A DNA stretch of 61,832 nt, the filler included, from Sphacelaria rigidula (lineage: Eukaryota), in the NCBI GenBank assembly GCA_964200075.2. It is 10 parts of 10 records of this genome, joined end to end, with 100 filler letters (N's around TTAATTAATTAA, not from the genome) between each part and the next. Parts side by side here need not be neighbours in the genome. Positions count along the whole stretch, not along the records: positions 1 to 6,094 come from CAXNAA020022268.1; positions 6,195 to 12,288 come from CAXNAA020022269.1; positions 12,389 to 18,481 come from CAXNAA020022270.1; positions 18,582 to 24,674 come from CAXNAA020022271.1; positions 24,775 to 30,867 come from CAXNAA020022272.1; positions 30,968 to 37,060 come from CAXNAA020022273.1; positions 37,161 to 43,253 come from CAXNAA020022274.1; positions 43,354 to 49,446 come from CAXNAA020022275.1; 2 more parts are not named here. One strand, given 5' to 3'. This document shows positions 4,420-60,810 of the stretch, piece after piece; position 1 is the first letter of the stretch; each line of letters starts with the position of its first letter. A program made the position numbers and the translations under genes. The notes below the pieces were generated by a model. That model was not told the origin of the DNA, did no database searches, and was given only the letters and a program-made list of their open reading frames with translations.

Positions 4420-5216
4420 AGAAATGGAAAATATAACACAAGGAACATGCCACGAAAGAGATTGCTAGCCATAGTTGATAAGGCTGTACGGAAGAAATTT
4501 ACGAAAGGGCAGGCTGGAATAAGGTGGGATAGAGAAGTCGAGAAAGTATGGAAGGAGATAGAAGGAAACCAAGACGAAATACTGTCCATAGTTGAAGGCG
4601 CAAGGCACGAGACAAAATTAAGAGACATGATAGAAATAAGGGGAAAATGAGCGCTCAGACACAAAGTAGACGAGGAAGAGGACCTGAAGATATGCAGGGA
4701 GTTGGGGGAAGGGATGGGGATGAAACCATATCTGCACGGACCAATGGACTACGCGAAAAAATCGAAACTGCGATTTCGGGTGGGGGACCTGGACCTGCCA
4801 GGAGGAAGAAAGAGGTACGCCGGTAGTTAGGTGGAGGAAGAAGCAGATGCACAGAATTACCCCTGCGGCAAAGCAATCAAGAGTAGGATTCAAATGGTGT
4901 ATACAAGGAGGAACAGGACGTGTTGGAGGAGGAAATGCTGGACGTGAGCGAAGGCGGCATGAAATCGCTCGGTACATTAGACAGCAGCGAGGAAACGGTC
5001 GCTATACTAGGAGATACATGATGGCAACAAGCGGCGAAACAGGAAGGGAGATAAGATATGTTAAGCGTTTCTGTGTGTTGTATGGAAATAAGCTCCTGAG
5101 CGCCCAAATCCTGGAGGTGTCTCTATTAGGAGGAGGAACGGTGCTCGTCTCGACAGGGATGCAAGGCCAATGATCAAACGACTAAGGGGAGCAACAAATG
5201 GGTAGCCAGCCCCTCC
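4420..5216 (+). mobile_element. 3' fragment of a non-LTR retrotransposon (LINE) family, degenerate
   Basis: Broken ORF: MPRKRLLAIVDKAV..GQAGIRWD..KLRFRVGDLDLP..PCGKAIKSR..GVSIRRRNGA. Ends AAATGGGTAGCC plus a C-rich tract. Aligns by eye with the copies at 47610-47910 and 60214-60810. Confidence 0.85.
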
Positions 5217-6029
5217 ATCTGACCACGCCTTCACTCGCAGCCGTGTCATCTGTGGAAACGTGGCAATCCCTGCGCGATCCGACCACATCTTCCCTGGCGC
5301 TTGTCACCTCGAAATGCGGAAATGTGGCCGTGGTTCGCCCATTAACGCGTTTGTGGTACGCGAGCTGGCAATCCCTACCTCATCCGACCGCACCTTCCCG
5401 CGCCCCCAACGCAGCCGTCAAGCAACATCTCTACACATTTCAACACCACTTGGTACATCTATATCTATATCTCTCTATAAATATGTGTGTCGACCCTAGT
5501 CGTCTCAATCAAGATGCCCAATTGAGAAGCTTGTGTCGTGGGTGAACACAACTTTGCCATTAAGATTGAACTTGAAGCTCAAAGCATGAAGAGTCTAACT
5601 GCAGGAGTAAATGGCGTCACCCCCCAGTATTTTCCTGGGTGCGGCCTGTGTGCGACGCGGAGGGGCGCAAAGGAATTGACGACTGAGTGACTTTCATCAG
5701 CAAGCGCTTCGGGATGAACTTATCTCCGGTTTCGACGGCGCCTCTCATTTTCTCATTTTGTCTCCTTCCTCATATTTTCGTACCGTCTCTTTTCGACCGC
5801 GGGTCTGATCTCTCCAATATTGTCTCGTATATTATATTTTCATCCCGTCTGTTGTCGACCGCAGGTCTGATCGTTCCCAAGTTGTCTGGTTACTTTATCG
5901 AGAGTTTCGTTTCATTCGTTGTCCCCGTGAACCAAACTCCGCATACCAACCAACCCAAACCTTCTATCATAACCGTTCATCGAAAATCCAAAACCAATCA
6001 TTCCCCCCCCCCCCGGCTAGGTCATAGCG

Positions 6030-6094
6030 TAAAGAACATGCAGAGAAAGAGACTGCCAGCTATAGTTGATAGGGCTGTATGGAAGAAAAGTACG
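6030..6094 (+). mobile_element. Short fragment of the same LINE family, cut by the contig end
   Basis: AAGAACATGCAGAGAAAGAGACTGCCAGCTATAGTTGATAGGGCTGTATGGAAG matches 4441-4497. Confidence 0.75.
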
Positions 6095-6194
6095 NNNNNN
6101 NNNNNNNNNNNNNNNNNNNNNNNNNNNNNNNNNNNNNNTTAATTAATTAANNNNNNNNNNNNNNNNNNNNNNNNNNNNNNNNNNNNNNNNNNNN
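6095..6194. other. Artificial 100-nt contig spacer (N run + TTAATTAATTAA + N run). Same spacer at 12289-12388, 18482-18581, 24675-24774, 30868-30967, 37061-37160, 43254-43353, 49447-49546, 55640-55739
   Basis: Identical structure nine times; the linker has stops in all six frames; intervening blocks are 6093-6094 bp. Confidence 0.97.
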
Positions 6195-6319
6195 GTAGGG
6201 TTGGGTTCATATGAAATTAATTTGTCTTTAATTTAGTTCAGGGAAAGCACGGCTTTTGAGTTGAACCTCATTTTGTTTTCAACCCCATTTTTTTTTCAAC
6301 CCCATTTTCGAGAATCGGC

Positions 6320-6492
6320 TGTTTGTTGTTGTTGCTGCTCCTGCTGCTCCTGATCCTGCTGCTCCTGCTGCTGTGTTGCTGCTGCTGCTATCGTTGCTAT
6401 TGCTATTGCTGCTGCTGCTGCTGCTGCTGCTGTTTCCACCTTGCTTTCCACTATCCTGGTCTGCTGTTGTTGTCCCGCTTGTTGTGTTGTTA
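6320..6492. repeat. Imperfect (CTG/TTG)n trinucleotide microsatellite
   Basis: Seen directly in the sequence. Confidence 0.95.
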
Positions 6493-8629: not shown

Positions 8630-9120
8630 AACTGTGGGGTGATACAGGTGCAAAAGGCTCATGACACAGTATGGGGCAATGGGCTGTGGGAAAATATATG
8701 AGGAACTATGATCAAAGGAAATGTGTGGACGATGAAGACGACAGAAATGTGCCACAAGTGCGATGATGCTAGACAGGGAAATATCGAAATATTTCGATAT
8801 TTTTCAAGGAGTCGCACCAGGATGTACGTCATCACCCTCTCTACTCGAGGTATTCTTTGATGACCTGATACCAGCATTAGACACGGCAAAGCAAAGGGTG
8901 AAGTTGCTGAAGAAATTGGAAACAGTGCAGCTGGCCGCAGCTCAGAGAATACTTGGATGCAATCAAAATAGTGAAGAAGATGAAAACAGTACAGATTGCA
9001 ACAGCTCAGGAAATACTTGGATGAAGTGAAGTTGGTGAGGGAGTTGGAAACAGTACAGATGACAGCAGCTAGGGGAATTACTCGGATGCTCGAAACAAAC
9101 GAGTACGCCTCCCCCCCCCC
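8630..9120 (+). mobile_element. LINE reverse-transcriptase fragment joined to the family's 3' terminus (GAGTACG + poly-C)
   Basis: VQKAHDTVWGNGLW, MMLDREISKYFDIFQGVAPGCTSSPSLLEVFFDDL and KLETVQ..A..ILGC are non-LTR RT motifs (D..KAYD.V; QG.PQG..LSP.LF). Confidence 0.85.
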
Positions 9121-11331: not shown

Positions 11332-12216
11332 TTAATACGTCAGCCTCGATATTGGCGTATTGTTGTTCCTTCCGTCGGTAGATTCATGGAGATTTCCCGA
11401 AATCGTCAATGCTAGTTTTCGTAGCTCTTGAGATTGACGTTGGTTGGTAGGAGATGAAGTAGTGCGGGCCGAAGTTCCGGCGGAGCGAAGTCGCATAGGA
11501 TGAGTAGAAATGTTTGAACTGTCGCCGCGGTTCAGCAGTGAAATGCCATCAAAAACGTTGTTGTTGAAATCCGTATTGTCCTGTTGAAGGTGGTCTTGAG
11601 TGTGATGAAATTCGGCTTCGTCCTGTAGGTCCTCTTGATGGGGCTGAAAGTCAGTATTCCCCCCCCAAATATTCGGAGTTGGTTCTTGCCACAAATTGGT
11701 TGGAGCTCCGGATGCTTGCTCAACGAATGTGACGTTTCTGGAACTACTAATCCTGCCGGACTGCCGGTCGTAGATGCGGTATGAAGGGCTGTCGTACCCA
11801 TGCCTTGTCTTCCAGTTTGTTGAGGTGTCCTTCCTTGTGTACGAACGCACGACAACCTATGGTGCGTAGAAACGATAATTTTGCCTGTTTTCCAAACATC
11901 CTGTAGTACGGTGCTTCTCCGTTGATGCTACTATGGGGTTGACGATTCAGTAGAAATACTGCCGTCGCTGATATTTCACCCCACAGGTACTTGGGCAGGT
12001 GCCCTTCGTTCAAGAGGCAACGGGTTATGTTGAGAATAGTTTTTCCGTCGCGTTCTGACATACCATTCTGCTGAGGAGTGTAGCTGGCGGTGAACTCTTG
12101 GATAATTCCGGTAGTTTTGCAGTATCGACGAAAATGCTCTGCTGTGAGTTCCCCTCCGCGATCTGACCGCAGGTGATGTACTCGAAGTCCTTGAGGAATC
12201 GCCACGTCTTGAATGA
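11332..12216 (-). mobile_element. Ty1/copia integrase core and downstream linker, frameshifted
   Basis: LRSDRGGE..F..YC...GIIQEFTASYTPQQNGMSER...LPKYLWGE..ATAVFLLNR..GCRAFVH....KLEDKA, then GYDSPSYRIYD..SRNVTF in another frame. Confidence 0.93.
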
Positions 12217-12288
12217 ATTTAACAACAAATTGTGCGAATTGAGGTTTAACTTCGAGATGAGGCTCAAGCCTAAAACAGTGCTTTCCCC
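12217..12288 (-). repeat. End of a young repeat abutting the copia integrase; near-identical copy at 55740-55813 (+)
   Basis: GGGGAAAGCACTGTTTTAGGCTTGAGCCTCATCTCGAAGTTAAACCTCAATT...TTGTTGTTAAAT in both copies, each at a contig end. Related sequence at about 6240-6300 and 28655-28700. Confidence 0.85.
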
Positions 12289-12969: not shown

Positions 12970-13338
12970 CCGGTCGCCCCGGTGGCTCAGTTGGTAACCT
13001 CGTAACCTTCTGATGGTTGNNNNNNNNNNAGGGGGGTTCGATTCCCGGAGCGATCTGGAATCGTTTCTCACACTATGCCCAACAACAGTGGAGAGCGACT
13101 ATGTCGTGGGTACACAAAGTCGACGAGGGGAAGGGACTGCTGACTGCTGGACCCCTCTCGCGATAAAAATAAAAGACAAGCACCGCAGAAGGAAGGTGGG
13201 GCATTAAAATCAAATAAAAACGAAAAAGCTCCTGTGTTGACCTTCCTGCTGTGTGGCCCCGGCTGATGCGTCCACATACACCGAAAGGTGGAGACTGGTT
13301 CCCAGAATAAATGGGACGAGAATACACAACACACACAC
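12970..13338 (+). mobile_element. tRNA-derived SINE, copy 1
   Basis: Pol III A box TGGCTCAGTTGG, B box GGTTCGATTCC, shared body and (CA)n tail. Confidence 0.85.
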
Positions 13339-14431
13339 TCATGTACGGCAGCGGTTTGCGTACATTTTTCTGGGCGAAAGTATATTTATAAAAAATGTAA
13401 GCCGATGTCACCGCGCGCCTGCGAGACTACCTGCTGTGTATACTGAAGTGCCGCAGGTGTATCGGAGGACTTTAGCACGATCGTGTGTGAGACTGCTTAA
13501 CTTCATTGGCTTTACCTCAGTCGTTCCTGTTTATGCTGCGAAAAACACGATAGGCGGCCAGCAAGGGTCAGCAGCAGCAGCAGCAGCAGCTGACAATCCC
13601 GGACCAAAACCGGGTTCATGATGCGCTGACCCACTGGACGGAGTAACAGTTTTTCTCATAACACGAGATCCTGCATCCCTAAGGGTAGGCCTTTGATCAA
13701 GCAGAGGGTTCTCTAAGTGACAGAAGTGCTGACAAGAATTCTCCACGCACCTGTTGAGAGCAGCGAGAGTTTTCGGAAGCACGGACACATCACCCGTGGG
13801 GGGGGAAGAGGGGGGGTGTTATATCCCGTCAGCGTACAGCCACAGAAGCGCGTGTATCCCTCGGGGGGTTTCAGCGTGAGGGCTGCAGCCAGGCGCGCAC
13901 ATAGCTCTAGAGGATACGAAGAAAATTGCAGGAAGTCAACATGGACAGTCCGGATATATCCCGTGCCACCACGTACATTTTTTGCGACAACGACAACAGC
14001 GCGGCGGCGAACCTATTGAGGGACCGCACTGCTGCCACTACTGTCATATTGGCTGTGTCTCGTCCTGATCATGGTTGCAATACCAAAATGATTGAACATA
14101 CGCCAACATCATGTCAGCGACATCACGATCAAGATGATGTGAAGGCCCTACGTGGAAATGATGCAAGCCGCTACACGTCGACCACTGTTACCTCCACTAT
14201 TGGTGCTACTACCGCTGCGTCGGCTTGTGTTCCTTGCTCGAGTCAAGATTCAGCTAGTGACTCTGGAGACTTCGATGGTGATCGTAGCAGCGAGGCAGAC
14301 CGGCGAGATCAGGGATATTCTGTTGCCATTGTCAGTGTCGTTGTGCATGAGGTGGGCATCACCATCATCAGTCTCGCGTGGTCCAACGGTACAAGAGCAT
14401 TCGTGAAGCGTACCTCCCCCCCCCCAGAGTG

Positions 14432-14612
14432 AAACACGAAGAGGATAAGATATGTGAAAGGCTCTTGTGTAAATATCGGAAAAAAATATAATTAGTACCC
14501 GGACGTTGGGGGTGTCTCTATTACGTGTAGGAACGGTGCCCCGTCTCAGAAGGGATGCGTGGTCAATAGTCAAATGACTCAGGCATACAAAAAATGAGTA
14601 CACCCCCCCCAT
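14432..14612 (+). mobile_element. LINE 3' end with poly(C) tail
   Basis: ...GGAACGGTGCCCCGTCTCAGAAGGGATGCGTGGTCAATAG...AAATGAGTACACCCCCCCC. Confidence 0.88.
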
Positions 14613-15229
14613 CCCCCAAGCGAACGCATGCCGTGAGTCACTGAGACCTACAAAACGCAAAATGAGTCATAGCATGGGCTGAAAAATCAGTGATTCGTGT
14701 GGTTAATTCATTTAGGCATGTGGCGCGTCAAGTTGCTTACACCGAAGCACAAAAGGGAAAGCAGGGCGCGTGTGGTTCGCAACGAGGGTGTAAGACGCAA
14801 GGCCACTGTTGATGCTTATCGAAGGGTGGAACCCTGACACAACCGGTTTTTGCCAATGGGGCAGTCCAGAAGAGGTGTAACCTGCTGTTCTTCGTTCAGC
14901 ATCACATTTCGGCAGATGCAAATATCAATCCTTTCCCTACGAAAATATCGGTTTCTATCGTCGCGCATCGTTTGGATACTGAGTTGGTGCGATTACAACA
15001 AACTCCTAAAATACTTCATCGTTTTTTTCCGCGCGTATGCACACCTACAACTCGTCGAATCCACGTTAATCGCATGATGTCATGCGACACTCGCCACGAT
15101 ACATGTGGTAAAATGATACTGGAGCAACTCCTCCTTCCGGAAAAAGTAATCTGAGACGTCAACTGAATGGTAAAAGGTGGGTTTACGTCAACCCGTCGTT
15201 AAAGATCCATGGTTGACAAAAACTGTAAG

Positions 15230-15577
15230 CCGGTCGCCCCGGTGGCTCAGTTAGTAACCTCGGAACCTTCTGACGGTTGGGCCGTGGGTTCGAATCTCGG
15301 AGCGATCTGGGATTTTTCTCACACAGTGCCCAACAGTGGAGAGCGACCACGTGGTTGGTGGGTACAAAGCATTCGACTTAATGGTCGACGAGGGATTGGG
15401 AGTGCTGAACCACTCTCGCAATAACAAAAAAAAAGTAAGCACCGCAGAAGGAAGGTGGAGTACTTGAAAAAGAAAAAACTCCTGTGTTGTCCTTCCTCGT
15501 GTGTGACCCCGGCTGGTGCGCCCACATACACCGAAAGTTGTGGACCGGTATCCAGAAGAGATGGGACTACAACACAC
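15230..15577 (+). mobile_element. tRNA-derived SINE, copy 2, with a probable target-site duplication
   Basis: A box TGGCTCAGTTAG, B box GGTTCGAATCT, CA tail; flanked by AAACTGTAAG and AAACTGTGAAG. Confidence 0.88.
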
Positions 15578-17074: not shown

Positions 17075-17181
17075 AGATCCTGTGTTGGCCCTTCTCCTGT
17101 GTGACCCCGGCTGATGCGCCCACATCTACCGAAAGGTGTAGACTGGCATCCAGAATAGATGGGATGACAACACACACACAC
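17075..17181 (+). mobile_element. 5'-truncated SINE, copy 3
   Basis: TCCTGTGTTGGCCCTTC..CCCCGGCTGATGCGCCCACATCTACCGAAAGGTGTAGACTGG..ATGGGATGACAACACACAC matches the 3' third of the other copies. Confidence 0.85.
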
Positions 17182-18365: not shown

Positions 18366-18445
18366 GGGAGGGGCATAATTCATTTGCTGCTCGCCTTCGT
18401 CGTTTGATCATTGACCACGCATCTCTTCGAGACGGGGCAACGACT
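18366..18445 (-). mobile_element. LINE 3' end fragment; further fragments on the next contig at 18582-18640 and 20118-20245
   Basis: CATTTGYTG..GCCTT.GTCGTTTGA.CATTGACCACGCAT..TTCGAGACGG matches the family terminus. Confidence 0.75.
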
Positions 18446-19450
18446 ACGGGAGAAGGAGAAGGGGGGGGGGGGGGGGAAAAANNNNNNNNNNNNNNNNNNN
18501 NNNNNNNNNNNNNNNNNNNNNNNNNTTAATTAATTAANNNNNNNNNNNNNNNNNNNNNNNNNNNNNNNNNNNNNNNNNNNNCTTGCCTTAGTCGTTTGAC
18601 CATTGAACACTCATCCCTTTCGAGACGGAGCACCAAGAGAATAGGAGGGGGGTCGGACGTGGAGGGTAGGACATAGAAGCGTGCACGAGATTAGTGGGGT
18701 GACGTGGGGGAAACTTCTCCTGCCCCCGACGTATAGTCGCAAAGGAATGAGTGTGCCCTCGACCTTGCAGACAAAAAGCGACGGTCCCCAATCCTCGCCA
18801 GTGATCAGCCTGCCACGTACACCGTTCCATCAGCTCGATCCTCATTCATCGATAGCCGTTGGTGATGTTTACGAGTGGAACGAGTCACAAAATCATGATG
18901 ATGTCAAACAGACTAAACTCCGTACTCCTGCGTACGATGACACCCGATGGTGTCTGTCTAGGTTCTCTTCGTTCATTTTGTGTTTGTACTGGATGTTCAA
19001 ATGTCTCTTGGTCAAGATTTGAAGTGATGTTACTTATCCTGAGAGCAAACCGACACCTCCTCGCGAACACACACGCCAGAAAAGTCATATTCGTACCTTT
19101 TCCCAGTAAACCTTCTCTGTGCCCGCTCTCCGTTCAGTACCCGCCTTCAACGTATGCCGTCCAAGAGACATAAGACGTGTGTACCCGTCTCTTGACCACG
19201 GCTGAATTCGTAGTGGGTGAGCTAATGTCAACTCGTAGTGGATCACTTCTGTTTAATGTAAGGCAAAAATTGAATCAACCGATCGATCACTGGCATCCGC
19301 AAATCTACACGTGGCCGTTCACCTGCTGTGCTCACCACCCGGTGTGTGGGCGGATGCGAATGTCAAACATGCCGACTGAACACCGCGGTCATCCTACCCG
19401 TTAGACTCTGTGTCTGCTCGCTGCGTGCGATGCAGCATGAAATCGTGCAC

Positions 19451-19644: not shown

Positions 19645-21623
19645 CTTGTTTAGAGGCGGATACGTTTAGTTTTTGGCATCTCGCAAAACAACAACGCACA
19701 CACACACACACACAAGCACGCATGCACACATAATGGTGTGTTTTCTAGTCTACTGGCGGCAGGTTGTACCTTATTACAACGAGGCACGATGGCAATGCCT
19801 GAACGGCTCCGTTTCGACGAGGAAAGCAGGGTTAAGCGATGTCTTCCTGTGTCATGATGTGTTGAGTACCGAGAAATGAAATGGCGATACATCGTACGGC
19901 TCATTGAGGCAATTAATTCTCCATACATGAAAAACAAAAACCGTTCGGAGTGTTTCTTGAGGAGGGGGATGTACTTCGATGGGACGTGATGGATGTTCGT
20001 TTCACACCTCTTTGCCACGGTAAACCGATTTTAAGGGTCACACATGTGATTCTTGGCTCGTGCTGTGAAGAAACTCCACTTTTGTGAATAACTTGGTTTT
20101 GTTTCAGTAGATCTATTGGGAGGGGGCGAACTCATTTGTTGCGTGCCTTAGTCGTTTGACCACTTACCACGCATTCCTTTCGAGACGGAGCACCGTTCCT
20201 ACTCCTAATTGAGACACCTCCAACATTTAGGTGCTTGTTACGCCTACTATGGGGGGGTGGGAGATTACCACCTACTTGTTAGATATATGTATGGATTACT
20301 ATTTACTTTTCGTACTGTATTCGAGCACAATGACTCGGGGGCTCATGTCAACCTAACTCAGGCTCTATTCCAATATATTGTTGTGACGGAGAACACTGTG
20401 ATAATTAGTACCAGAAGGTCCGTCCGCGCGTTTATTTCATTCGCGTTTTTTAAACCGACCGTAGAGTTGGTTGCAAAGAACGCCCTGGATTGGTGCGTGT
20501 TAAAATAATACCCGGGGCGTCTGTTTTGTTGTCTCGAAATACCTATGTGACTGAAAAAACGGAACAAAGAATCGAAAATGCCGTGTTGTTACAGATAAAC
20601 ACCACTGCATGTGATCATGTACATCTTGGGCATGAACCGATGCATGTCAGTCTGCCTCGAGAAGATCGCCGGCGTAATGTAATCAGAAATATTACAGCGG
20701 GTCGAAATTGGCCCTGAAGAATTGAAGCATGCTCATTTTTACCCCCCGGAGCAACATGCTGTCCATCGGGAACCAAACGCAGATTTTGGACAACATCCCC
20801 CTACTATGGCGAAAAATGGCCGTTTTCCTCTGATCGGAGATCTAATGGCAGATTCGGAAATTGTTCGGTTGTGCGGTTCCCGGGAACGTTCTCTCGTGTC
20901 CCAGCTTTCAAAGACAAGCGAGAAAGGTGCATGCGTCCTGGTGTGAAATTTGACCGAAGAAATAATAGAGAAGCACGGTTCAGCTGACGTCTGATGATGG
21001 AACTTAAATTGCCAGTCAGCCGGCAAGCACATTTTCCAGTCAAACACTGCAGACTGCGACTCTTGTATGTGATAATGTTCGTGATTACCTTTGCATGAAC
21101 ATTTATTCCTGTGATGGATGCAGGGAAACAAGGTACACACCACCCACACGCAGTAAGTACCCTTCCTGGTCGGTGCAAATAGCCGTCCTTCCTTCGAAAA
21201 TGTAGTACAACAGTGCTACGGCATCCCTCGAACCATGATGCTCCTCGAAGACTACGGAGGCGTGGGCATGGTCCATCGCATTTTTTCGACAATTAGAGTA
21301 CTACTCATCGACGACCGCGCCGAGACGTGCGCCCCGCGGAACGATATGGCGGACATCTGCGGATGGACACCCCATTTCCTTCGGTCAGTCGAAAATCGTT
21401 TCAAGCGGTGAATCGCGCGTGAAGAAATTGCGTGTCGCCAGCGCCTTCTTACAGGATACTATTGCGGTGATGGTACCATTGGCTTCTTCATGAGGGCGTG
21501 CCTGGGCGTCAAATCGGACGGCTATGCAGAGTAGTGTGGGTGCATGCCCTTCTTCACACAATCTAGAATCTTTTGTCAAAAGGAGTGCCTAGAAGCTACA
21601 GCTTCTCCATCAAGATACTTCAC

Positions 21624-24601: not shown

Positions 24602-24674
24602 TGCTCCGTCTCGAAAGGGATGCGTGGTCAATGGTCAAATGACTAAGGCAAGCAACAAATGAGTACGCCCCCCC
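24602..24674 (+). mobile_element. LINE 3' end with poly(C) tail at a contig end
   Basis: TGCTCCGTCTCGAAAGGGATGCGTGGTCAATGGTCAAATGACTAAGGCAAGCAACAAATGAGTACGCCCCCCC. Confidence 0.9.
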
Positions 24675-28725: not shown

Positions 28726-31289
28726 TTGTCTTCATTTCAACATTACACAGACAGTACAATATTACATGGTAGACATGGTTTATCGAGTTTCATCTCACCG
28801 ATTTACAGTAAGGCAGGGACAAGTGTCATTCACGCGTGGTATCCAGCAAACCGGCATATCAATCCCAAGCGGACAGCTATCTTCAGCACAGGCATTATTT
28901 TTTTTTTCGTACTGGTGGTGTTGAAAATTCAGTCAAGCATCAGCTTTGATTCGTCTCTCGAGAGTATTGAAGCTCCAAGGATTACCCAACTCTGTTCCGA
29001 AAAGGAACTGCATCCAACTGCATTCAAGCAGGTGTGTTTGTAACCGTCGTGAGCGAACACAACCCTCCACTTCTGATCGGCATGGACAGCGTGCATCCAC
29101 AATCAACCCTCTGGATTTTGTAGTCGAATAGCAAGCCCATCCTCGTACTGATCCTCCAACACTACGCGGCGATCCATTACAAACCTAATCAGGCACAAAC
29201 GACAGCAGACTAGCTTCATGTTGTCAGATTCAGATGCAAACCGCCACTACACCCGCGCTTTCGTCCGACTTTGAGATCCAACGAGGCATACTTCTTGTAA
29301 TGCCGGCGATAGACACGGAAAATTTGATGATACCATGAAGACTGCGTATGTCGAGTTTCAGTTGTCCAAGAGTAGAGAGTAGGGCCGTCATCAGATCATA
29401 CTGTAGCAGCTACAGCATCTGGCGGTTCCGACGGTGTCGCATCGGTAGCCGGCGAAACGATGGGGGGGGGGCAAATGGCGATCCGACACCGACTCATGCT
29501 ATACACACCACCACGACAACTACCACCCCCACAACAACCACACAGATCCCCAGCTTCACCACAACTCCCACCATCAGCACCGCGATTGCTGCTCCGACCA
29601 TAGGGGGTGTAACACCCCGTAACGACACAACCACCGTCCCGAAGATTCATCCCGCAGGAATGGTCTTTGACGAAGTAGGGGTCATCAGCACAAAAATCCT
29701 GGCCACGACCATCATCAATCGAAGTATGGTGGTTATGACGAACGTAGAGGTAGCACTTACTTACTACTTTAATTTGTCGCCACCTCGTCGGTACCCCCGC
29801 CCACCGAAGCCTCCTCTCGAAAACCCCCAGCAATTTGGTCTTGCGCTTCACATTCATGCCAAAACTGCTGAGTTAGGGATGGGGGTACCTACCCACGAGG
29901 TGACGGACTGAGGAATACCGATCGCTGACAAGCTGATCCAGATTTCACACGCTCATGCCATACGTATTCTCCTGCGGACCAAGGCGCACCACATCACAGC
30001 GGGTATCGACCCCTCGTGATTCTTCTCCAATCGACACACATCCTCATACCGATTCTGCACAACATTATGAGGGCTATGCCGACGGAGATGACTCCGCCTA
30101 CAATGACGAAAATGCTTTTTACCACACTGGCCACGCTCATTGCGTACAAAATACGCTCTTAACACACCATTAGCCACTGCAACTCCCGCACCAACCAAAT
30201 CACCAACAACACACATACCAACCTCCTCTCTACTACCATCCAAGACAACATCAAACGACGTTCTACCCACATTAACCACCAGCTACCATTACCCCACCCA
30301 CGCACAGCATTTTTACGAACCACAACAGTAACACCATCAAGCCGCAGCTCCCCTTGCTACTTCACGTCCTCCTGATGCGTCACCACAGTCAGAGCACCCC
30401 CAGCTATGTATGGCGCGTTCCGTGCCGGAAGGCAAGTCTCGTTTTCGATTCGGTAATGTTGATTTGCATGGATATATTCTGTCGCATAGGTAGAATCTAT
30501 CGAGTAGGGGTGAGCCATGCTACGATCGGGGGGGGTCGGGGGTATTTGCCTCCACGAAATATGGGGCTCACAGGCGTGTCAGACGACCTAACACACTCGC
30601 CGTGCACTGGTATTTAGATGAAAACGAAGTCAATCAGTATCAATGAGCGTTATCCATCGGTAACAAGCGCGCTTGAACAGCCGTTGCTGCTTTCAACGAA
30701 GATTCGACGTGGGATTTCGTGAAAGAAATGGCCCAAATACCTCGCCCCCCTGTCGGTGCTGCCGATCGTAGACCAGTATACATACCTTGGCGTAGAGATC
30801 TCAAGAAACTGTTCTTGGGATGCACACATGACCAAAGTAAAAAAAAGGGTAGATCACAGAAGGGCTGNNNNNNNNNNNNNNNNNNNNNNNNNNNNNNNNN
30901 NNNNNNNNNNNTTAATTAATTAANNNNNNNNNNNNNNNNNNNNNNNNNNNNNNNNNNNNNNNNNNNNGTGATGGAACGACAATTCGCGGACTGAAAAAAG
31001 TCTCTGCGAATCGATGGCTTTTCGCAGAGACATTTGTCAAAATCCTGCTGTCTGTAAATTGTGGCCAATTTCCAGAGGCTTCTTTCATGAAAAATGGCCC
31101 CATAAGGTCGCGTTCTGAAAAAAGTCTCTGGAGACTGACCAAAACGACTTTTCTCAGAGACTTTTTTCAGTCTATAAGAAGCGGCCTCACGGCCTCTGAG
31201 CTCCAAATTCGACAGGAAAACGATTTTTTCTTTCTTTTTTCCATGTTGGATTATGGCAAATGTAGGGAGCAGTTCATGGGCATCGTCAA

Positions 31290-36130: not shown

Positions 36131-36452
36131 GCTCCTTTTCGAATTTCACAAACTCAGCAAGAAACGGAGATGTTCACTACAAGCCACAGCGGATACTACC
36201 CCCCACATCTAAGCTCTTCACACGCTGTTCACGAGATACACAGCTCGCGACACAAAGCTCGATAGCCCCGCCACAGCTGTCCATGAGCTGGTTGATTATC
36301 TGCTTCATTTTTCGAACATTCTATGTTTCTCCTCGAATGTTGACAGCTCAGTTTCTGCATTTCGAAGAAAAAATCTCTTCATCTGAAGCTGTCCCCTCCG
36401 TTCTCGTGTATTTATTGTCCCGACCCTCCCCCACCTCCACCCACCGGGTCGA

Positions 36453-36552
36453 ATAATCTCAGTAGGATGCAGCTCGCCCTTCATGCTACTCGCCGAACAC
36501 ATCAAGGCGCTTCGCGCTTGGTGATTGCGACCCTGGTCCGGCGAAAACCGCG
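36453..36552 (+). repeat. Dispersed repeat; inverted copy at about 47980-48080
   Basis: AGGATGCAGCTCG..ACTCGCCGAACA.ATC..GGCGCTTCGCGCTTGGTGA shared. Confidence 0.8.
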
Positions 36553-36739
36553 TGCTTCGTCCCGACTTTGTAGAGATTTGAGTCCAATCAATGGCCCTAT
36601 GACTACGGCATGCAAAATCACGAGTATCCCCCCCTCCCCCCTTCGTCCTCCGCCTCCTCCACCCCTGCCTGTCTGTCTATCTGCTTTTCTGCCTATCCGT
36701 GTGCCTATCTGTCTGTGCCTGTGGGACAACATGGCACAG

Positions 36740-47206: not shown

Positions 47207-47910
47207 AGGGATGCTCATTTGTTGCTTGCCTTAGTCATTCGATCATTGACCACGCATTCTCTTCGAGACGGAGCAACGTTCCTACTCCCAACCAGGACAC
47301 CTCTCATCAAATAGGCGCTCCATCAAGTTTTTTTTCTTCATACATTACATGAAGAACGTTCTACACATCTCATGTCCATCCTGTTTTACTGTCCATGACC
47401 ACCATTTTTCTCCCTATGCAACGATCGTTTTCACGCCACCATCAAACGATTTCATGTCACATTAGTTGGGTTCCGTAGTGGTATCTTCCAACAAGTCCCG
47501 TTCCTCGTTGTACATTTCATATTCTCCCACCATATATACATATGGGGGGGGGGGGCGGGTAACAGTTTTTTGTTTTATTCGCTCCTTCGACCCATAACCN
47601 NNNNNNNNNGGGGGGGGGGGGGGGCGTACTCATTTGTTGCTTGCCTTCGTCGTTCGACCAATGACCACGCATCCCTTTCGAGACGGGGCACCGTTCCTAC
47701 TTCTAATGGAGATACCTCCAACATTCCCGCGCTCATTACGTTTCTTCCATACGTGACACAGAAACCTTTTACATATCTTATCCCCGTCCTGTTTCGCCGT
47801 CTGTGGCCACCATCTATCTCCTAGTATAGCCGTCGTTTTTTCACTACTGTCTAATGCATCAAACGATTTCATGCCACCTTCGTTCACGTCCCGCATTTCC
47901 CGCTCTAGCA
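47207..47910 (-). mobile_element. Two tandem LINE 3' fragments (47207-47545, 47610-47910) in COPB2 intron 1
   Basis: ORF 47630..47956 ends AILGDRWWPQTAKQDGDKICKRFLCHVWKKRNERGNVGGISIRSRNGAPSRKGCVVIGRTTKASNK*, followed by GTACG-C(n). Confidence 0.9.
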
Positions 47911-48284
47911 CGTGTGGCATGCCGTAGTCGTGAGACCACTGACCTCGCATCCCCACGAAGCAGGGACGGAGGATGCCAAGTTTTCGCCAGATCAGGCACG
48001 CACTCAGTCACCAAGCGCGAAGCGCCGAGATTTGTTCGGCGAGTCGCACAAAGGACGAGCTGCATCCTGCTAAGATTGTTCGGCCTGAACCATGCTGACT
48101 ATTTTGCACATGGATGGCAGCCCCCGATGAGGTAATAGATGTTCTGGTACAGCCACTTCCAGAGACAGCCACGGCTTAAACGCTGCCTCGCGGGTATCTC
48201 ATCATTCAAATACCACGTAGTGCGATCATCCCCTTCGCGCGGGATTGAGCTTATCCCACCCCCCACAAAATAAACTAGCTTTAC

Positions 48285-48287: not shown

Positions 48288-49792
48288 CATCAGTGTTACC
48301 GCAAACAAAACGCAATATCAGTGACTTTGTAGCCTAGCTTACGCCGTGATTGAGGTGGTTCACGGCGTCATTGCCAACCGACGTCAACTCCACCGGGGGT
48401 CCATCCCTACAAAGCCGGGACGGAGAACGCCGGGTTCTCGCCGGATCAGGTATACGGAGACGGGGGATGAAGTGTTGTTGTCTTCACAATCAAAAACCGT
48501 TCCGATATCTGCGTAGTGCTCTGTACCACCAGGCATATGATACGGACGCCTTCCGTGGTCGCAGGCTAACTACCCAAAACCAGGTGTAAGAAAATCAAAC
48601 AATAAAATCGAGAAATCCATACAGACACGATACAAGATAAAATAAATAAAAAGGGGAAAACAAAGCAGGAGAGAAGGAAGAGGAATGGAGAGACAGAATT
48701 ATTCCCGGCGTTCTCAGAGCTCTGTAAATCGAATCCCCGAGACAAGAAGCACGAGAAGTTATTCCCCAAGATCAACAGCTTGCTAGCTGGCTGGTCCATT
48801 TGAGAAACTCACCAAAGGTTCGTCTCTCTTGGACGAGAAACGATGCAGCTGCTCTACATCATAACGTCATTGAGACCTTTCGGTACCGGAGTGACCGGAG
48901 TGGACCAACTGGGGGTGAGGGCCTTTTGTGAATCGGCATCAGTTTCACTCGAATACGACTGAAAATGATGCCGATTCCAAGGGTGTGATGGGTACAGTAG
49001 GCGTCAGCACACGAGAATCTGGCAGTTGCTAAATAACTTGAGGCTACGATTTTCGGCATGAAGAAAAATTACAGGTAAGCATTTTTTGCCGGGCTCGACG
49101 AGAAATTAGATCTTAGCATGTGTGCCGAAAATGGGGATGAAATAAGACGAGACTCTTACGCAAAATAGGAGTTCCTCAGTGCTGACGCGTACTGTAGGGT
49201 AAATACCTGGGTATTTACTCTCGTGAATTTCGTGTTGCGATTGTGTCATTTCCGAACTCTACCCTGATATATCGGGTATAGATAGGTACGATCGCAATAC
49301 TCTCCCCAATATCTGGGTATAGTTGAGTATGCTCTCAATACTTGACCTCAAGTTTTGGGTACTTACAGTACGATTTTTCGAATTACAGTAGTTAGCGTCA
49401 GAAGTGCGCAGAATCCGTAATTTCTTAGTTTCTCAAAGATTGTCCANNNNNNNNNNNNNNNNNNNNNNNNNNNNNNNNNNNNNNNNNNNNTTAATTAATT
49501 AANNNNNNNNNNNNNNNNNNNNNNNNNNNNNNNNNNNNNNNNNNNNACTCACTTGAAGCGAATGATCAAAGCCACTCTCAATCATATAATCTAATCTCAA
49601 TCTCACGAAAACACTGTTACTCGAGGTGTGCTTGTATCTGGTTCAAAACGGTGTCGAGCAGTGTGAATGACCGTCATCTATTTTTGACAAGCTCGTTCGA
49701 ACAACCGTTGCTACTTTCAACGACGATTTGCCTAGAAATCTTGTGCAAGAAGTGGCCCTAAATACCCCCCCCCTCCTATCGTAGGATGACTC

Positions 49793-51007
49793 CGAGGTAC
49801 TCGCCTGCTGCGCCGACACGAGCGTGAGCTACCGCGCCTCTGTAACGTCTACCAAGCTCCTGGTAGCCCCGGGGGAGGATACGGTCAGTCGGGTGAAACG
49901 AACAAAAACAAACCTGGGCACACACACACACAGCGAGATGGTGGGAACTCCCACGCTTGGGGTTGATTCGCCAGTAGCGCCCATGAGAGGCGCTTCATCC
50001 AGCCTAACCAGCTATCACGCCTTGTATGGTCACTTTTTTTGTGGCAGTGTTGGGAACTGGTTTTGAGGTGGGCTGCATCGTTGCTACGTGCAGCGTGCTC
50101 GGGAGCCGTTTTTATTTATTTATTTACAACCCGCAGACGAGGTAGCGAAAAAAGCAGCACATACAGCCACCCCCCGTCATTCTCGTACCTTTGCACAACT
50201 ATGTATATTTATATATGCAGAAGATGCGCTTTTTCACTCACTTGCAGCAGTGTTGAGCATTTCGTAGGAGGAAGTATGCGGGAGAGGCACGGCTCCATCT
50301 ATTGCACACTGTGGCAGCTTCCACTAGGTGAGCCTATTGCCTGGAAACGCTAGCTCCTAGGGTAATACAACAGTAGCGTGACGGTCATCGTATAGTTTTT
50401 GAAGTATATATATTCTCCCTCAAACGACGGAGCTCTGAACCAGCCAGGGAAAGTATTGCTAGGTCTTCCTTAGATATGACGAGAAACAATTGCACCGTTT
50501 TTTGCAGAATATGGCTGGAAATGAAGCATGTAGATTAGTATTCAAGGATACTGTAGTACATCTTCCCCTGTTCAGAATCGAAATTTTCTTGCTTGAACCG
50601 TTTATGCCCGTCACAATGGACGATTGGGTTCCTCCAAAACCATCCGTCCCTTCACGACATTACCCTGGGCACTGAAATAACTTTATATAAAAAAACGGGT
50701 CGCAAGCACGCTGCACGTAGCAGCGATGCAGCCCACCCCAAAACCAGTTCCCAACACTGCCACGAAAATAGTGACCATACAAAGCATGATAGCTGGTTAG
50801 GCTGGGTGAAGCGCCTCTCATGGGCGCTACTGGCGGATCAACCTCAAGCGTGGGAGTTTCCACCATCTCGCTGTGTGTGCGTCCATTTTTGTTTTTGTTC
50901 GTTTCACCCGACTGACTGTATTCTTCTCCGGGGCTGCCAGGAGCTTGGTAGACGTTACAGACGTGCGGTAGCTCATGCCCGTGTCGGCGCAGCAGGCGAG
51001 TACCTCG
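49793..51007. mobile_element. Foldback element (about 1.2 kb) with about 320-bp inverted arms
   Basis: 49793 to about 50115 is the near reverse complement of about 50688-51007 (CGAGGTACTCGCCTGCTGCGCCGACACG / CGTGTCGGCGCAGCAGGCGAGTACCTCG). Confidence 0.9.
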
Positions 51008-54400: not shown

Positions 54401-55600
54401 TGCCTCTCGCACTACGGTGGTGAGAGGTGGGTTGATAAGCGTGGCTTCGTTGTTTGACTAGCCATGCTGGTGGCATATAACGCAGGCTAATGAGAATAAT
54501 TTTCGCGTTTCGCTCTTTGAGTAGCCATGTAGCTGATATTTAATGCACGCTGAGGAGTTTAATTTCGCATTTAGCTGTTCGATTAGCCATGTGGGTGACA
54601 TATAATGCGCACTCAGGAGGCGAGTTGCGCTTTGACTCGAACGCGTTACTCCAATGACCTCTGAACTCGAACGATTGTGCACATGACTCATACGTTTCAC
54701 CTGCTGTAGCGTTCCTTGGAGGACTCCGGTGTTTCTGGCGTCGGAACAATAGGTTATCGTTCTTGTTTTATACTTTTACGGCCTGCCTCACCTGAGTTCG
54801 TTTCTGGTGTCGCCAATACGAGAAAGGTGTATCGCTAGGGCAGACAGAGGTCTACGGGGGAGATTATCTTTGAAGATGTCGTCCTGATGCCGAACGAGCT
54901 CCGAGGCTGGCGATGATTTCATCTTGTGATATGTACGCAAGAAGTGGGCCAGACTTGAGTGATCACCGTAGGGTGACTAGTTTCTCCGGGGATGCAGGGT
55001 CGTCCTGAGATCAGGCCCTTTTGGGCATCACCCCGAGTTATCTAGTATCGTTGGCATTACAGGATCTCGGTAATCTGGTCCTTTCCGGACCGTTCCTATC
55101 TTGTACCTGCATGCGCTGGTTATTCATACATGTGTGGCATTGATCTCTGATATGTTATTGCAAAGAGGTAGCTTCGACATAACATGGAATTGGTGAGTTT
55201 GATGGCCTCCTCTTTCTCCCAACAACTGCTACCGAGTCTCAAACGGCCGAGTGAGGATGGATAATCGCCGGCGGGAAAGTCGTGGGTCGATGAATCAACT
55301 ATTCAAACGTTGAATACCGGGTGGTTCACGCGCGTCACCCGGAAGCGTGTTACCAGCATATAAATGACTTCTGCAACGCCTACTCAATACCGGCATATTA
55401 GGTATCATACGAATCGCCGCCATTCACAAGTGAAGAGGGGAATGTGGCCATTCATTTGTTGAAAGCCACATATAGCGGTGTCACTTCGAGGGCGAAAATG
55501 TACCTCGACCAACCAGCGTCCTTGAAATCGTTCTAAAAATGAAGATACGAATTCTCCCCCCCCCCATTTCTCGGTTAGGAGAGGGGATAGAGATGAAAAC
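51500..55600 (-). mobile_element. Decayed Ty3/gypsy retrotransposon internal region (RT - RNase H - integrase); outer limits approximate
   Basis: RNase H ..HSPTMKECYAVVLAIQHFRPFSWGRHF..DH..L....LTRW...L.SYDF.VRHRPG; integrase TFGIPEKLHSDRGAEF and WASMRPFIQMAYN..LLFGRQP; gypsy domain order. Confidence 0.88.
53394..53650. mobile_element. Sola-like MITE (same family as 45601-45845) inserted in the gypsy pol
   Basis: AAAG|GAGCAATGCTACGGTACGGGTGCAC ... GTGCACCCCTACCGTAGCATCACTCG|AAAG. Confidence 0.88.
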
Positions 55601-56619
55601 ATATTTGCATGGCCCCATGGACGCTGCGAAAAATATGAANNNNNNNNNNNNNNNNNNNNNNNNNNNNNNNNNNNNNNNNNNNNTTAATTAATTAANNNNN
55701 NNNNNNNNNNNNNNNNNNNNNNNNNNNNNNNNNNNNNNNGTGGGGAAAGCACTGTTTTAGGCTTGAGCCTCATCTCGAAGTTAAACCTCAATTCTCACAA
55801 TTTGTTGTTAAATCTGTTTGTCAAGGTTATCATAGAAGATCCCCATACCCCAGAGAGAAAAGCATGGTCCGCCATTTTTTCGCCCGATATCGAGCCCATA
55901 CAGGAAGCTACGGGTAAAAATGGCCGCGTCTACAACAGGGGCTGAACTCAAGATTGACAGTACAGCCACGGTTCAGGGGCAAGAAGATGTGAACAACTTA
56001 GTCATGATTGAAATGAAAAATGATTTTGTGGACGATAAACACAACTAAAAAATGTTTCAGACACACTATATGCAGCCAGTGACTCTTTCTACGGTACCCA
56101 CCCCCCCGCCCGCCCCCCAGAACCAGCCTCGAACTGTCTCGAAGACAATAGTCATACAGCGCCTGGTGTTTGATTTAAGGTTGCATGAAAAGCTTCAGGT
56201 GGGACTGCTGCCGAGATAGCCCCCCCCCCCGAACCGACCAAAAACGTGCACGGAGGCGATGATCGTAAATGCCGTGAGAGCTGGTTTCGTGCTGCACGAC
56301 GCGCCTCATTTGGGCGTTGTAGCCGATCTCGGACTGCTACACGCCTCTCATGTGGGCGAACTTGGTGCAAACGAGCCCAATAGTGGCAGTGTAGCCGGTT
56401 TGTCGGACGGTCTCCGGTGCACTTCTTGTGGGGGGGCTATCTCGGCATTAGTCATGGGCGATATTGGCGAAAACGCACCCAAGCGTAGAAATTCGCAGCT
56501 GCGAGTTGTGCTCGGCCTTTTTCATTCGATTTACGCGTTGATTTTGCGTTTCCAAACCAGCAACGTCTTTTTGAGGGGAGAGGACTATGATATCGCGGAA
56601 AGTGTCTAGTTGCTGTAGT

Positions 56620-57420: not shown

Positions 57421-57479
57421 TAGCCGAGCCAAGTTACTTGGTCCAAGCAGAGGTGAACCATGTCAATCGATATTTGAGT

Positions 57480-58150
57480 AGCCGAGCCAGGATGATGAAG
57501 AGGGTGCTGATGACGAAGCAAAGGTGCCCCGAGAACCGGAGGGACGACAGTTGGGGGCGTGCGAAAGCTACAACGAGACGCCTTGATAGGCTCGGCGCTA
57601 AGGCCGCACAGGGCGGCCGCGGAGGCCGAACGGGCAGGGGGTCGAAACGTTTCATCGTTGTCGGTACGAACAATAGCCCGTGTGCGTCTCTTTTCGAGTC
57701 GACAGATAGACCACTTCGCATTGCGGTACACGCCCCTACCTGGTCACGCTCCACATCTTCCTATTCTTGGCAGCATAAGCGCAACTCAAGAATATCTTTC
57801 ATCTCTGACGATAGGAGTGTGCCCGACAGTCACCCTGTGAGCCTTTGCACACTTTGTCAAGACAGCGGCTACACTCCGCTATACCAATAGCTTATGAGCC
57901 TCGTACAAGCAGTGCATAGAGCAACAGTGTCTGCGTGCAGCTCGTTATGCTGCGGATCGGCACATCGCATCCATGGGGTCAAACACTGCAGTTCTTCCCC
58001 CGGACATCCAAGTTCTTGGAGAGATCTTCGATCACGGACGTCGGAATCAACCGTATTATCACCAAGCTCAAGCTAGGTCGGTTCAACAGCATCACCACAA
58101 GATCGTGTTCCTCAAGTTCGCGCTATTCCAAGCCTCCAGCGAACTTCAGA
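57480..58150 (-). pseudogene. Possible second, convergent Harbinger-like transposase remnant
   Basis: Fragments DVRGRTAVFDPMDAMC, LLSSEMKDILEL, LHHPGSAT; by eye only. Confidence 0.28.
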
Positions 58151-60213
58151 TACTGAACACTCCACGTTTCCGCGCGAGGTTTGTTTCGAGACCAGACCAC
58201 CGGCGTCATTCGCAACACGATTTGGCCGACAGTGATTTTCAGCAACCCTCGCCGAAACCAAGGCGCTTCTTTCCGAGACGCTCGCAAGTGCTTTGCCGGG
58301 ACGCTCGCAGCTACCTCGGTATTCATTTCCGACAGCACGATAATTGCCTACTAAAAGAAGCGATATCTTTCTTTCTCGGGGTCTTGCTTTCTATGGGATT
58401 GCGCCCACACGAAACGAAACTTTATTCTCCGCCTTTTTCGCGCGAACTTTCTTTTTCATTTTGATGGGAGAGGTATCGGGCCACCGGCTATCATCAATCC
58501 GTTAAACATTACGCGCGTGCTATCTAGTACGTGCACACGTCTTCTGAAAATGTCACCCCTACACGTTCATTGTATGCGTCCACTTCGCAGGTAAATAAGT
58601 CAATTGCGAGCACTGCTGCAGTGTTTGGAACACACTAGTCAACGAACCCGATCGAGCGTTCTGTTTTCACCGGGCAATGTGTATGGCGGATCTTTGACGA
58701 CGCCTTTCAACCAGTACATTCAACCGGAGGTAGACTACAATCTATATTCGTGTTATATATATATATATACGACGTAGTTGTTATGACTTGATTCGAGTGC
58801 GAGCAACGAAAAAAAACATCTTCAGTTAGACTTGACATTTCCCTGTGCTCCTAGCGTTCGCTGAAGGCGCTTTCGTACAAATGGGCGCCTGTGGCGCCCA
58901 TCCGAGGTCTGCAAACGCCACATCTCGCCAGGTCAACTATATGCATCTCCCTTGCCCGACGGTTCCCGGTATGCCTTTCGTTGAGGTTAGGGTTGGCGAT
59001 AGCTGTGAAATTGTGTAGACCATGGAAAAACCACAGCCTTACTCCGGTCGACCGACCTCTTTGAAACAAACTCCAACTTGACTCCATCCAATACAGCCCA
59101 TATATTGTCAATGGATCGATGCCTCTTCGAAACCGCCAGCACCCTGTACCGAAGTTTGATTATGACCGTAAACTATTCTCCACCGAGACGCGATATCGAA
59201 TACCTTACGGTGTAAAATACTCAGCAATCACCGTTGCATAATTGAATAGCACTTGTTAGCAGCCTCCGTTTGAGTCCGAACTTGTGCCAAGCCCTCAGTA
59301 GGAAGTGCGATACCGTTTACGCATGAAACGCTACGCTTCGCGCTCGATTATCGATTTACGGTAAGGGTATGTTAAATTGGCACAGATGGATACTTCGTAT
59401 GTGAACATGGCGTGCGTGCCCTACAGAGCGCCTGTTGAGCTGCTCCGGTAGGCTCTGTTTGGGTCGAGATAAAATATTGTCAGGTATGCGCCAGGTGTTG
59501 CGTGTAGACCGCGCGGTCGAAGCGGCTAGCTACTGACATAAATAATGATGAGTATGGAGAATCCTGCGTGTATCTCAATTCGTTTTGGAGAACGTGGACT
59601 CTCTGGGCCTCGTAGGCTGTACTTCTTGCCGTGTACCTATGTGCTATTCGAAGTTTGACTTATCATGCAGACAGGGTCCTTCTCCGTCTTCGAAAGCACG
59701 CACGATTCCTTTATGGGATAGGGCAGTCATTGTGATGGATACAGCCTGCTCACTACTGAAACGTAAGGTCAAAGTCGCTTTTACATCCCGCTTTTTGTAG
59801 GGAAGCTCGCCCAGCTAGCGTCCCTCTGTTCGCTTCACGGCATGGATGGAGCCCTGTCAAACCGTCTCCAACGGCTTTCTCATGGTTCCTGCATCACGTG
59901 CATGTCGTATTGAATAGGCTACGTAGCTCGGGAGATTCCTGTTTTTCATGTCAACGCTATCCAAAGTGGGACTACTTGGGCACCGTTGGCACTAAACTCG
60001 GGTCGCGTGGGAGTTGCGAGCGAATGCTTCAAACACGTTATGTGCAAAACCCCAGCAAAGATCTTGAACTGATAAAGGTCAGATGAACCCGCCTTTGTCG
60101 ATAAAACGCCAATGATCATGTTCTGCGGGTCGCCCTAGGGCTGCGAGAAGCGACGTATTACGACTGTAGTAGAAGGTTCTCGCTACACAATGGAGCTGGC
60201 TGGCCGCCGCAAT

Positions 60214-60810
60214 GGGGCGGAGGGGGGAGGGGGGCGGTGAGGGGGCGTGTTCATGTGTTGCTTGCTCCAGTCGTGTGCCCGTTGGCTACCCATCTCTTTC
60301 GAGACGGAGCACCGTTCCTGTTTCTGGTGGAGACACTCACAACATCTGGGTACTCACGAGGCTTCTTCCATATATATCACGGCAACGTTTGATTTGTCAT
60401 CTTATCCCTATCCTGTTTCGTCGTCTGTGGCCACCATTGATCTTATAGTATAGCTATCGTTTCCTCCCTACTGATAGATGCACCAAACGATCCCATGCCA
60501 CCTTCGTTCACTTCCCCCATTCCCCCATCTGGCACGTCCCGTTCCTCCTTGTATAGTTCACATTCTGCCATACTACTGAGCCCTACTCTCTATTCCTTCA
60601 CTGCAGGGGAAACTCGGTGCATCTACTTCCTCACCTATTCGGCTACTGGTGTATCTCCTTCTTTCCGGCACGTTCCGGCCCCTCACCCAAAATCGCAGTC
60701 TCAACTTTCCTGCGGAGCCCTTTGGGCCATACAAGTATGCTTTCGTCCCTACCCACTCTCTCAACCCGTCGTATATCTTCAGGTGCTCTTCCTCGTCTAC
60801 TTTGTTTGAA
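60214..60810 (-). mobile_element. LINE 3' fragment with a C-rich tail
   Basis: KVDEEEHLKIYDGLREWVGTKAYLYGP..KLRLRFWV..PERRRYTSSR..FPCSEGIESR; G-rich tract at 60214-60246 on the plus strand. Confidence 0.88.

Follow-up and report, generated by a model that had tools for sequence, protein, structure and literature searches.

The question raised by this stretch of Sphacelaria rigidula DNA (assembly GCA_964200075.2; 61,832 nt, hereafter the window) is whether a long interspersed element (LINE) whose open reading frame (ORF) is followed by GTACG and a run of Cs carries these Cs as a tail or finds them in its target. The window comprises ten spacer-joined contigs of ~6.1 kb each from a source genome of 244 Mb. 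A sequence-only reading had proposed the C tail and the targeting of C runs as alternatives; each holds, but they do not exclude one another, C runs being targeted and Cs apparently added as well. We are fairly confident that the family is a high-copy brown-algal LINE of the APE type with a single ORF (endonuclease, reverse transcriptase (RT) and C-terminal CCHC knuckle), the counterpart of Ectocarpus RTEX-1/-2_Ec32, and that it is G:C-primed at C runs.

The 3' end of the family

Counted as exact matches to the last 16 bases of the element, 4,225 3' ends are present in the whole genome (reversed control, 0). CCCC follows directly in 3,229 of them and a non-C base in 212, which confirms that the 3' end of this LINE is a C homopolymer. 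A scan with a 10-mer in the window only gave 9 matches compared with 6.3 +/- 2.5 in shuffles, i.e. chance level. Among 41 matches listed, 30 loci were fetched, and all 30 showed a C-rich tract after the element end with diverging flanks beyond it; no downstream sequence common to these loci was found past the tract, which is therefore terminal. The 3' untranslated region is 5 nt long, matching the earlier estimate of about 5 nt, and three intact relatives from other assemblies (L176, L178 and L252; L-numbers label copies or contigs) likewise finish with stop-GTACG-C(8-13), their tails being C8, C10 and C13. L178 served as mapping reference.

Target C runs and target-site duplications

For junction analysis, 142 copies with the exact 16-mer were collected; 20 were dropped due to gaps or short flanks and 24 set aside because their loci had been picked for a next base other than C, so that 98 remained. 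Since a list requiring CCCC supplied about a quarter of the fetched regions, the 3' composition of the sample leans to C, with the 5' statistics unaffected; long copies interrupted by contig ends are under-represented. Looking 30 nt upstream from the 5' junction, we observed a C run of at least 5 in 70 of the 98 copies and a G run in only 4, in comparison with 74 of 2,417 background windows (3%). Strict target-site duplications (TSDs) were called in 20 of the 98 copies versus 0-2 in 20 shuffled pairings, and loose ones in 54 of 122 copies versus 3-16 in shuffled pairings. A TSD is made up of part of the C run and about 6-15 unique bases; 19 of the 20 strict TSDs open with at least three Cs, and the median number of unique bases behind the Cs is 8.5. 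The 3' end is common to all copies, and both the 5' truncation and the length of the TSD vary. At the DNA level, the copies thus sit in pre-existing C runs, are truncated at the 5' end and terminate in stop-GTACG-C(n).

An internal C tract, with the element running on to a poly(A) end, is one of the outcomes that would have overturned the sequence-only reading, and it has next to no probability left. A runs of at least 5 within 30 nt downstream do occur in 4 of the 98 copies, but in L116 and L172 A runs lie on both sides of the insertion as part of the TSD, the unique TSD bases adjoin the tract directly, and the flanks of all 30 fetched loci diverge straight after it. The TSD positions already refute this explanation.

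Filled and empty sites could be compared via a shared host-repeat terminus, not via orthology. This terminus, seen empty in the window at 49754..49792 (+), where its C9 run is free of any insertion, is very common in the genome, is carried by several families and consists of a C run, then TATCGTAG and a short conserved end; it looks like the end of a DNA transposon and is a favoured target of the LINE. The empty form has 529 genome matches, and all 25 fetched ones continue into host sequence. Its C tracts are 8-25 long (first 100 of the 529 matches). On the other hand, 125 element ends precede Cn-TATCGTAG, the downstream motif of the same terminus, with tracts of 2-21, and 24 of the first 100 of these have fewer than 8 Cs versus 0 of the first 100 empty ones. 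Tracts of 8-25 at empty sites together with short filled tracts mean that the C run pre-exists and was probably cut inside.

Origin of the Cs at the 3' end

In 8 of the 20 copies with strict TSDs the 3' tract is at least 3 longer than the target run, for example 3 versus 14 in L114 and L115, and for this reason the RNA probably adds Cs to the site. L100, L114, L115, L158 and L166 combine a target of just 3-4 Cs with a 3' tract of 7-15, and in L045 an inverted 3' end shows extra Gs at the 5' junction. In a further copy, L154, the 3' end and its flank form an inverted duplicate, representing either a fold-back insertion or an assembly artefact.

A purely target-derived tract, with an RNA ending at GUACG, all Cs stemming from the duplicated target and length differences arising by later slippage, is rather improbable. 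It would fit the C runs already present at most 5' junctions and the overall similarity of filled and empty tracts (median 10 versus 11), but it leaves the targets of 3-4 Cs bearing 7-15 Cs in the five copies named above and the extra Gs of the inverted L045 junction to be accounted for. One-sided expansion of short runs is rare, which also counts against it. Even less probable is a poly(C) tail added in place of poly(A) by a host or element nucleotidyltransferase, with the G run chosen by pairing. A 5-nt untranslated region is too short to accommodate a poly(A) signal, 3' tracts in some copies are longer than the target run, and a few tails (L055, L096 and L136) are very long, all of which would suit such an enzyme. 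However, tails are short as a rule, with a median of about 10, and read-through into genomic Cs accounts for them; a nucleotidyltransferase domain was not found in the ORF of the relatives, and relatives bearing (TAT)n on the same 3' domain point to templated repeats.

Several observations temper our reading of C-run targeting with addition of Cs. A strict TSD is lacking in 78 of the 98 copies, the filled and empty tract medians hardly differ (p=0.059), and in 4 of the 20 copies with strict TSDs the 3' tract is shorter than the target run. Moreover, copies are ~10% diverged and C runs slip, making differences in tract length noisy, and the 3' and 5' ends of the RNA are deduced from DNA contigs only.

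A class of 66-nt copies

Most copies are very short. Out of the 98 sampled, 57 measure 60-72 nt, 16 are shorter and 25 longer, and 16 of the 20 copies with strict TSDs fall into the 60-72 nt class, hereafter called stubs. Identity among copies falls sharply upstream of position -66, where no common head exists. Genome-wide, the core motif at this edge has 790 matches with a 6-nt upstream extension versus 2,534 with a 6-nt downstream extension, a gap slightly inflated because some contigs begin exactly at the edge. In contigs of four public runs, which may include the source of the assembly, depth changes in a step of 4- to 9-fold across the final ~75 nt; three of the four runs have C-rich loose ends before -64 to -69, and poly(C) loose ends occur behind the element end.

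The stubs do not form a separate subfamily, for which clear diagnostic bases are missing, even though they are somewhat less diverged (9% versus 15%). Nor are they truncated short interspersed elements (SINEs) with a hidden head, as upstream bases are not shared and 16 of the 20 strict-TSD copies measure 60-72 nt. Likeliest is either frequent trimming of the template RNA, with protection reaching as far as the 5' limit of the 3' domain, or an RT leaving its template there, two causes that the data do not separate. For the 66-nt peak only, truncation by microhomology between the C-rich target and the first pyrimidine patch, with RNA structure and processing playing no role, is an unlikely explanation. 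An overlap of 1-6 nt with the element start is seen in 10 of the 20 strict TSDs, and the patch, which spans -66 to -56, comes first among the C/T-rich stretches; yet the other half of the strict TSDs lacks any overlap, junctions gather where the patch begins on its 5' side (-65 to -67) and not inside it, and the similarity to a SINE-like partner (see below) begins at the same edge. As a separate observation, the 5' junction of L042/L204 has ten extra bases resembling TTAGGG telomeric repeats between TSD and stub.

A conserved 3' RNA domain and its distribution

For the last ~67 nt of the element, whose 5' limit agrees with that of the stubs, the predicted fold is a closing stem that encloses two hairpins. 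RNAalifold analysis of 13 sequences returned the same fold with 18 pairs, 4 of them with two-sided changes, and compensatory support is present for both hairpins. In a 20-pair version 92.8% of the cells pair, a value as high being reached by 0 of 500 shuffles; the number of pairs with a two-sided change was not above shuffles (217/500). The fold is put in some doubt by the weak support from single-sequence folding (z -1.0 to -2.15), by covariation rows coming from only about five related lineages, and by the inner pairs of the closing stem, which are conserved without two-sided change. No Rfam covariance model matched L178, L176 or the genomic copy L032 at E<=5, and a single match in the SINE-like partner (E=7.1) is at chance level. 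A ribozyme or tRNA-like nature of the domain was rejected, there being no Rfam match and the arm order not being tRNA-like by inspection.

The partner is a SINE-like non-autonomous element of ~315 nt that ends in Cs; its similarity to the LINE begins at the -67 edge, and its copies L108, L089, L049 and L092 have a fixed 5' start. At 47625-48206 (-) of the window, a partner copy adjoins the 5' end of a 289-nt LINE copy with no C tract between them; this junction is possibly a template-switch chimera.

A similar C-terminal motif is retained in distant relatives of about 40% protein identity. Their DNA has kept the 3' domain as well, but its end is (TAT)n, and 3 of 14 (TAT)n copies revealed TSD-like repeats opening with the tail motif, as judged by eye. 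The (TAT)n relatives sit in AT-rich, repeat-bearing contigs filed under prokaryotic metagenome-assembled genomes (MAGs). Among L250-L280, megabase contigs rich in LINE copies are assigned to a 'Nitrospirales' MAG, with more contigs placed in other MAGs; these are probably DNA of host eukaryotes mis-binned in GTDB representatives. Relatives in viral contigs were not found.

We tentatively propose, as a possibility that we ourselves regard as doubtful, that the main mobile unit of the family could be a processed RNA of ~66 nt. The 3' domain, conserved in brown algae and as far as distant relatives, would be excised from the LINE transcript or protected in it, remain protein-bound and insert itself by G:C priming, and its swappable tail, C(n) here and (TAT)n in relatives, would act as the targeting module.

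Architecture and relationship to known elements

The genome holds a near-full-length broken copy, L032, that aligns colinearly with L178 over 5,011 nt at 80%, its frame being broken. PF03372 and PF00078 were identified in L032 and in L033/L034, the APE endonuclease from L032 and the RT from the other copies. In L178, a single frame of 1,426 aa contains the APE catalytic motifs, FADD and a CCHC knuckle; no other frame of at least 150 aa is present in it, and an ORF1 was not seen. With an N-terminal APE endonuclease and a non-LTR RT within one frame, the element is an APE-type LINE. From L032 and L178, the element is at least 4.97 kb long, the true 5' end not being fixed, in comparison with 5.5-5.9 kb for RTEX-1/-2_Ec32. 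A conserved N-terminal extension precedes the endonuclease (residues 1-170 of the protein P0003 and the N-terminus of the L178 ORF), which might substitute for ORF1; that of P0003 has no Pfam match, and the top Atlas score of its residues 1-100, 0.77, is uninformative.

The best PDB matches of the ORF are L1 ORF2 and R2, the similarity to L1 ORF2 being distant (E 6.6e-21). Mammalian L1 combines the APE, RT and CCHC layout with a T-rich primer that pairs with poly(A), and its TSD begins with the tail base. Layout, the tail base starting the TSD and primer-tail pairing are therefore alike in L1 and the Sphacelaria LINE, which differs in using G/C and not T/A, in having a stringent 3' domain inside the ORF and in showing no ORF1. 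Membership of a relaxed-type L1 clade was rejected, as neither a poly(A) tail nor ORF1 is present.

Ectocarpus sp. CCAP 1310/34 supplies the closest named proteins, with P0005 sharing 71% aa identity with the L178 ORF, and on this ground the host is taken to be a brown alga. These proteins split into two C-terminal types, P0009 being of the same type as the L178 family, and this fits the expectation of two families. No further autonomous family, belonging to the other of the two Ectocarpus types, was recognized in the Sphacelaria genome among the 150 candidates scored out of 1,938, the best matches showing only 31-41% identity. Membership of Ectocarpus RTE-1/-2 does not apply either: the (CAA)n 3' end is absent, and 689 of the 784 first bases behind the element ends in the sample are C. 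Furthermore, the family does not belong to the Chlamys Penelope-like elements (PLEs) or to CRE, since APE is present and no GIY-YIG or restriction-like endonuclease appeared in the Pfam scan.

An earlier description with this tail, which the sequence-only reading had named as grounds for refutation, does exist. In the supplement of Dinatale et al. 2025 (PMC12477816), as far as this source was accessible, RTEX-1_Ec32 of Ectocarpus is listed as 'single EN-RT ORF; (C)n 3'' and RTEX-2_Ec32 as '(C)n termini/TSD', both with a C-rich TSD. In the same portion, RTE-1/-2 of Ectocarpus end in (CAA)n and CRE-1 in (CA)n, the non-autonomous RTEX-N1 has a 60-bp 3' end in common and can be tandem, and the RTEX families were assigned by best blastp to RTEX-4_NV and RTEX-1_BF; the clade name RTE-X is given in the available part of PMC5753468. 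Going by these entries, RTEX-1/-2_Ec32 and the Sphacelaria LINE agree in the single EN-RT ORF, the (C)n 3' end, the C-rich TSD and very high copy number as well as in non-autonomous partners with about 60 bp of common 3' end and tandem copies. The Sphacelaria LINE differs in residing in another genome (244 Mb), in its older copies and in its partner of ~315 nt versus 607 or 188 nt in Ectocarpus. By the features so listed and by Ectocarpus protein similarity, not by consensus identity, it appears to belong with RTEX-1/-2_Ec32. As a reservation, the RTE-X placement comes from the labels in that source and from Ectocarpus protein similarity and not from a tree of our own.

Among other systems, Chlamys PLEs are likewise targeted to (C)n repeats (PMC8557442, accessible part), but with a PLE RT and a GIY-YIG endonuclease they are unrelated to the APE-type Sphacelaria LINE. 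Stringent LINEs often end in non-poly(A) repeats, such as (TGTAA)n in UnaL2 and (TAA)n in the I factor (PMC3747384, likewise in part). Stringent LINE/SINE pairs share with the Sphacelaria LINE the recognition of a 3' stem-loop, a SINE with a common tail and a non-poly(A) end, whereas the latter has a mononucleotide C tail, a domain overlapping the last codons of the ORF, and copies most of which are the domain alone. In the accessible text of PMC12477816, 'C-rich' and 'homopolymer' do not occur in the main text, and a mechanism, an RNA fold or a 66-nt class is not given. A search of the open literature, which did not cover Repbase, Dfam and subscription journals, revealed no account of a poly(C) tail in target-primed reverse transcription and no relevant one of a truncation hotspot at a stem-loop or of a 66-nt class; for RTE-X in brown algae it returned PMC12477816 only, and nothing specific for C-rich TSDs with RTEX. 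To the extent that these sources were accessible, the C tail is thus already catalogued, as a table comment, and the 66-nt class, the target logic and the tail swap on a conserved domain were not found in the literature searched.

Copies in the window

Mapping against L178 gave 13 fragments in 8 of the 10 contigs, compared with the earlier count of about eleven fragments in six contigs. Partner pieces were mapped against the partner copy L108. The 3' ends quoted as best preserved are present. The sequence at 14594-14610 reads TGA-GTACA-C8 and belongs to a 172-nt copy (14431-14602) with C10 at its 5' junction (14416-14425) and a C8 tail (14603-14610; whole feature 14416..14617, +). At 24657-24674, TGA-GTACG-C7 is followed by the contig end; this is a 66-nt stub consisting of the 3' RNA domain with a C-rich 5' flank (24602..24674, +; 97% to L178 4908-4973), which was included in alignment A1. 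On the minus strand, 47610-47634 reads TGA-GTACG-C15 and then an N gap, closing a 289-nt copy that ends KASNK-stop-GTACG-C15 at this assembly gap (47610..47913, -; 89% to L178 4685-4973). In the fourth, at 9097-9120, the stop codon is mutated and the copy apparently internally deleted: it is a rearranged copy (8648..9120, +) with pieces of RT-adjacent body matching L178 3340-3603 and 4038-4112, in which the body joins the last ~12 nt, followed by a C tract at 9108-9120.

The degraded C-rich ends are present as well, near 5200, 20127 and 60251. They belong to a 5'-truncated copy of ~810 nt (4396..5204, +; 77% to L178 4154-4971), a 116-nt copy with both flanks C-rich (20118..20242, -) and a 554-nt copy with a C-rich degraded tail (60231..60804, -; 76% to L178 4416-4968). 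Two more stubs were located, one of 65 nt comprising the 3' domain only, with a C16 run on its 5' flank (18378..18476, -), and one starting from the domain edge, inside which a contig begins (18582..18634, -; 94% to L178 4906-4958). A 320-nt copy (47214-47533) has lost its tail and shows a C12 run at its 5' flank (47544-47555; whole feature 47214..47555, -). Body fragments run off contig ends behind a target C12 run at the 5' junction (6003..6094, +; fragment 6023-6088) and behind a C10 run at the 5' junction (55556..55639, +; fragment 55573-55639), and a third has the C-rich end of the host repeat as its 5' flank (30760..30851, +; 87% to L178 3815-3907). The SINE-like partner is represented by a copy without its own last bases (47917..48206, -; 78% to L108) and by fragments at 36444..36626 (+; 80% to L108) and 48402..48450 (-; 94% to L108 over 49 nt).

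Every insertion duplicates one C run. The suggestion that the element is the source of the C/G runs at which contigs break was right in part: 8 of the 24 C/G runs of at least 8 in the window lie at element junctions, 5 of these 8 on the 5' side, and an element tail coincides with 1 of the 20 contig ends and with 1 of the 2 internal gaps. It is not their main source, 16 of the 24 runs lying elsewhere.

Other repeats were also noted. A dispersed repeat with a tRNA-like head and at least 5 copies (12970-13335, 15230-15577, 17063-17182, 31284-31462 and 40138-40585) is probably a tRNA SINE. A Copia-like integrase fragment lies at 11332-12288 (-) and, with 55742-55813, the same 72 bp ends two contigs. 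An inverted repeat pair of 327 bp at 90% identity (49793-51007) resembles a miniature inverted-repeat transposable element.

Putative mechanism and implications

A model for insertion can be suggested from the junctions. The protein would bind the ~67-nt 3' domain by stringent recognition and nick the G-rich strand within the run, and the G stretch at the 3'-OH would pair with the Cs after the domain in the RNA and prime reverse transcription. Such G/C pairing would mirror the pairing of the T primer with poly(A) in L1. The second strand would be cut a few bases past the run. The atypical priming step invoked by the sequence-only reading is thus needed insofar as G/C takes the place of T/A pairing, but the usual tail-target pairing logic would apply and no new step is called for. 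Since Cs follow each new copy, read-through transcription into them could restore a template ending in Cs with no need of polyadenylation; the tails of old copies would become new targets, giving rise to tandem arrays.

With these junction data, a table comment becomes a testable model of a LINE priming on G:C pairing without poly(A). One RNA-recognition domain has switched tail and target together, and this co-change is relevant to the question of whether target choice lies with the tail or with the endonuclease, a question of importance when LINE-based insertion tools are to be retargeted. If the processed RNA of ~66 nt proved to be the mobile unit, it would be among the smallest retroposing units and make it possible to examine, in a natural system, to what extent the target of a LINE is set by RNA-tail pairing and not by the endonuclease. 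For brown-algal genomes, thousands of 66-nt stubs are easily missed or misannotated as SINEs; they duplicate C runs and fragment assemblies, even if the element accounts for only some of the C/G runs and contig breaks here.

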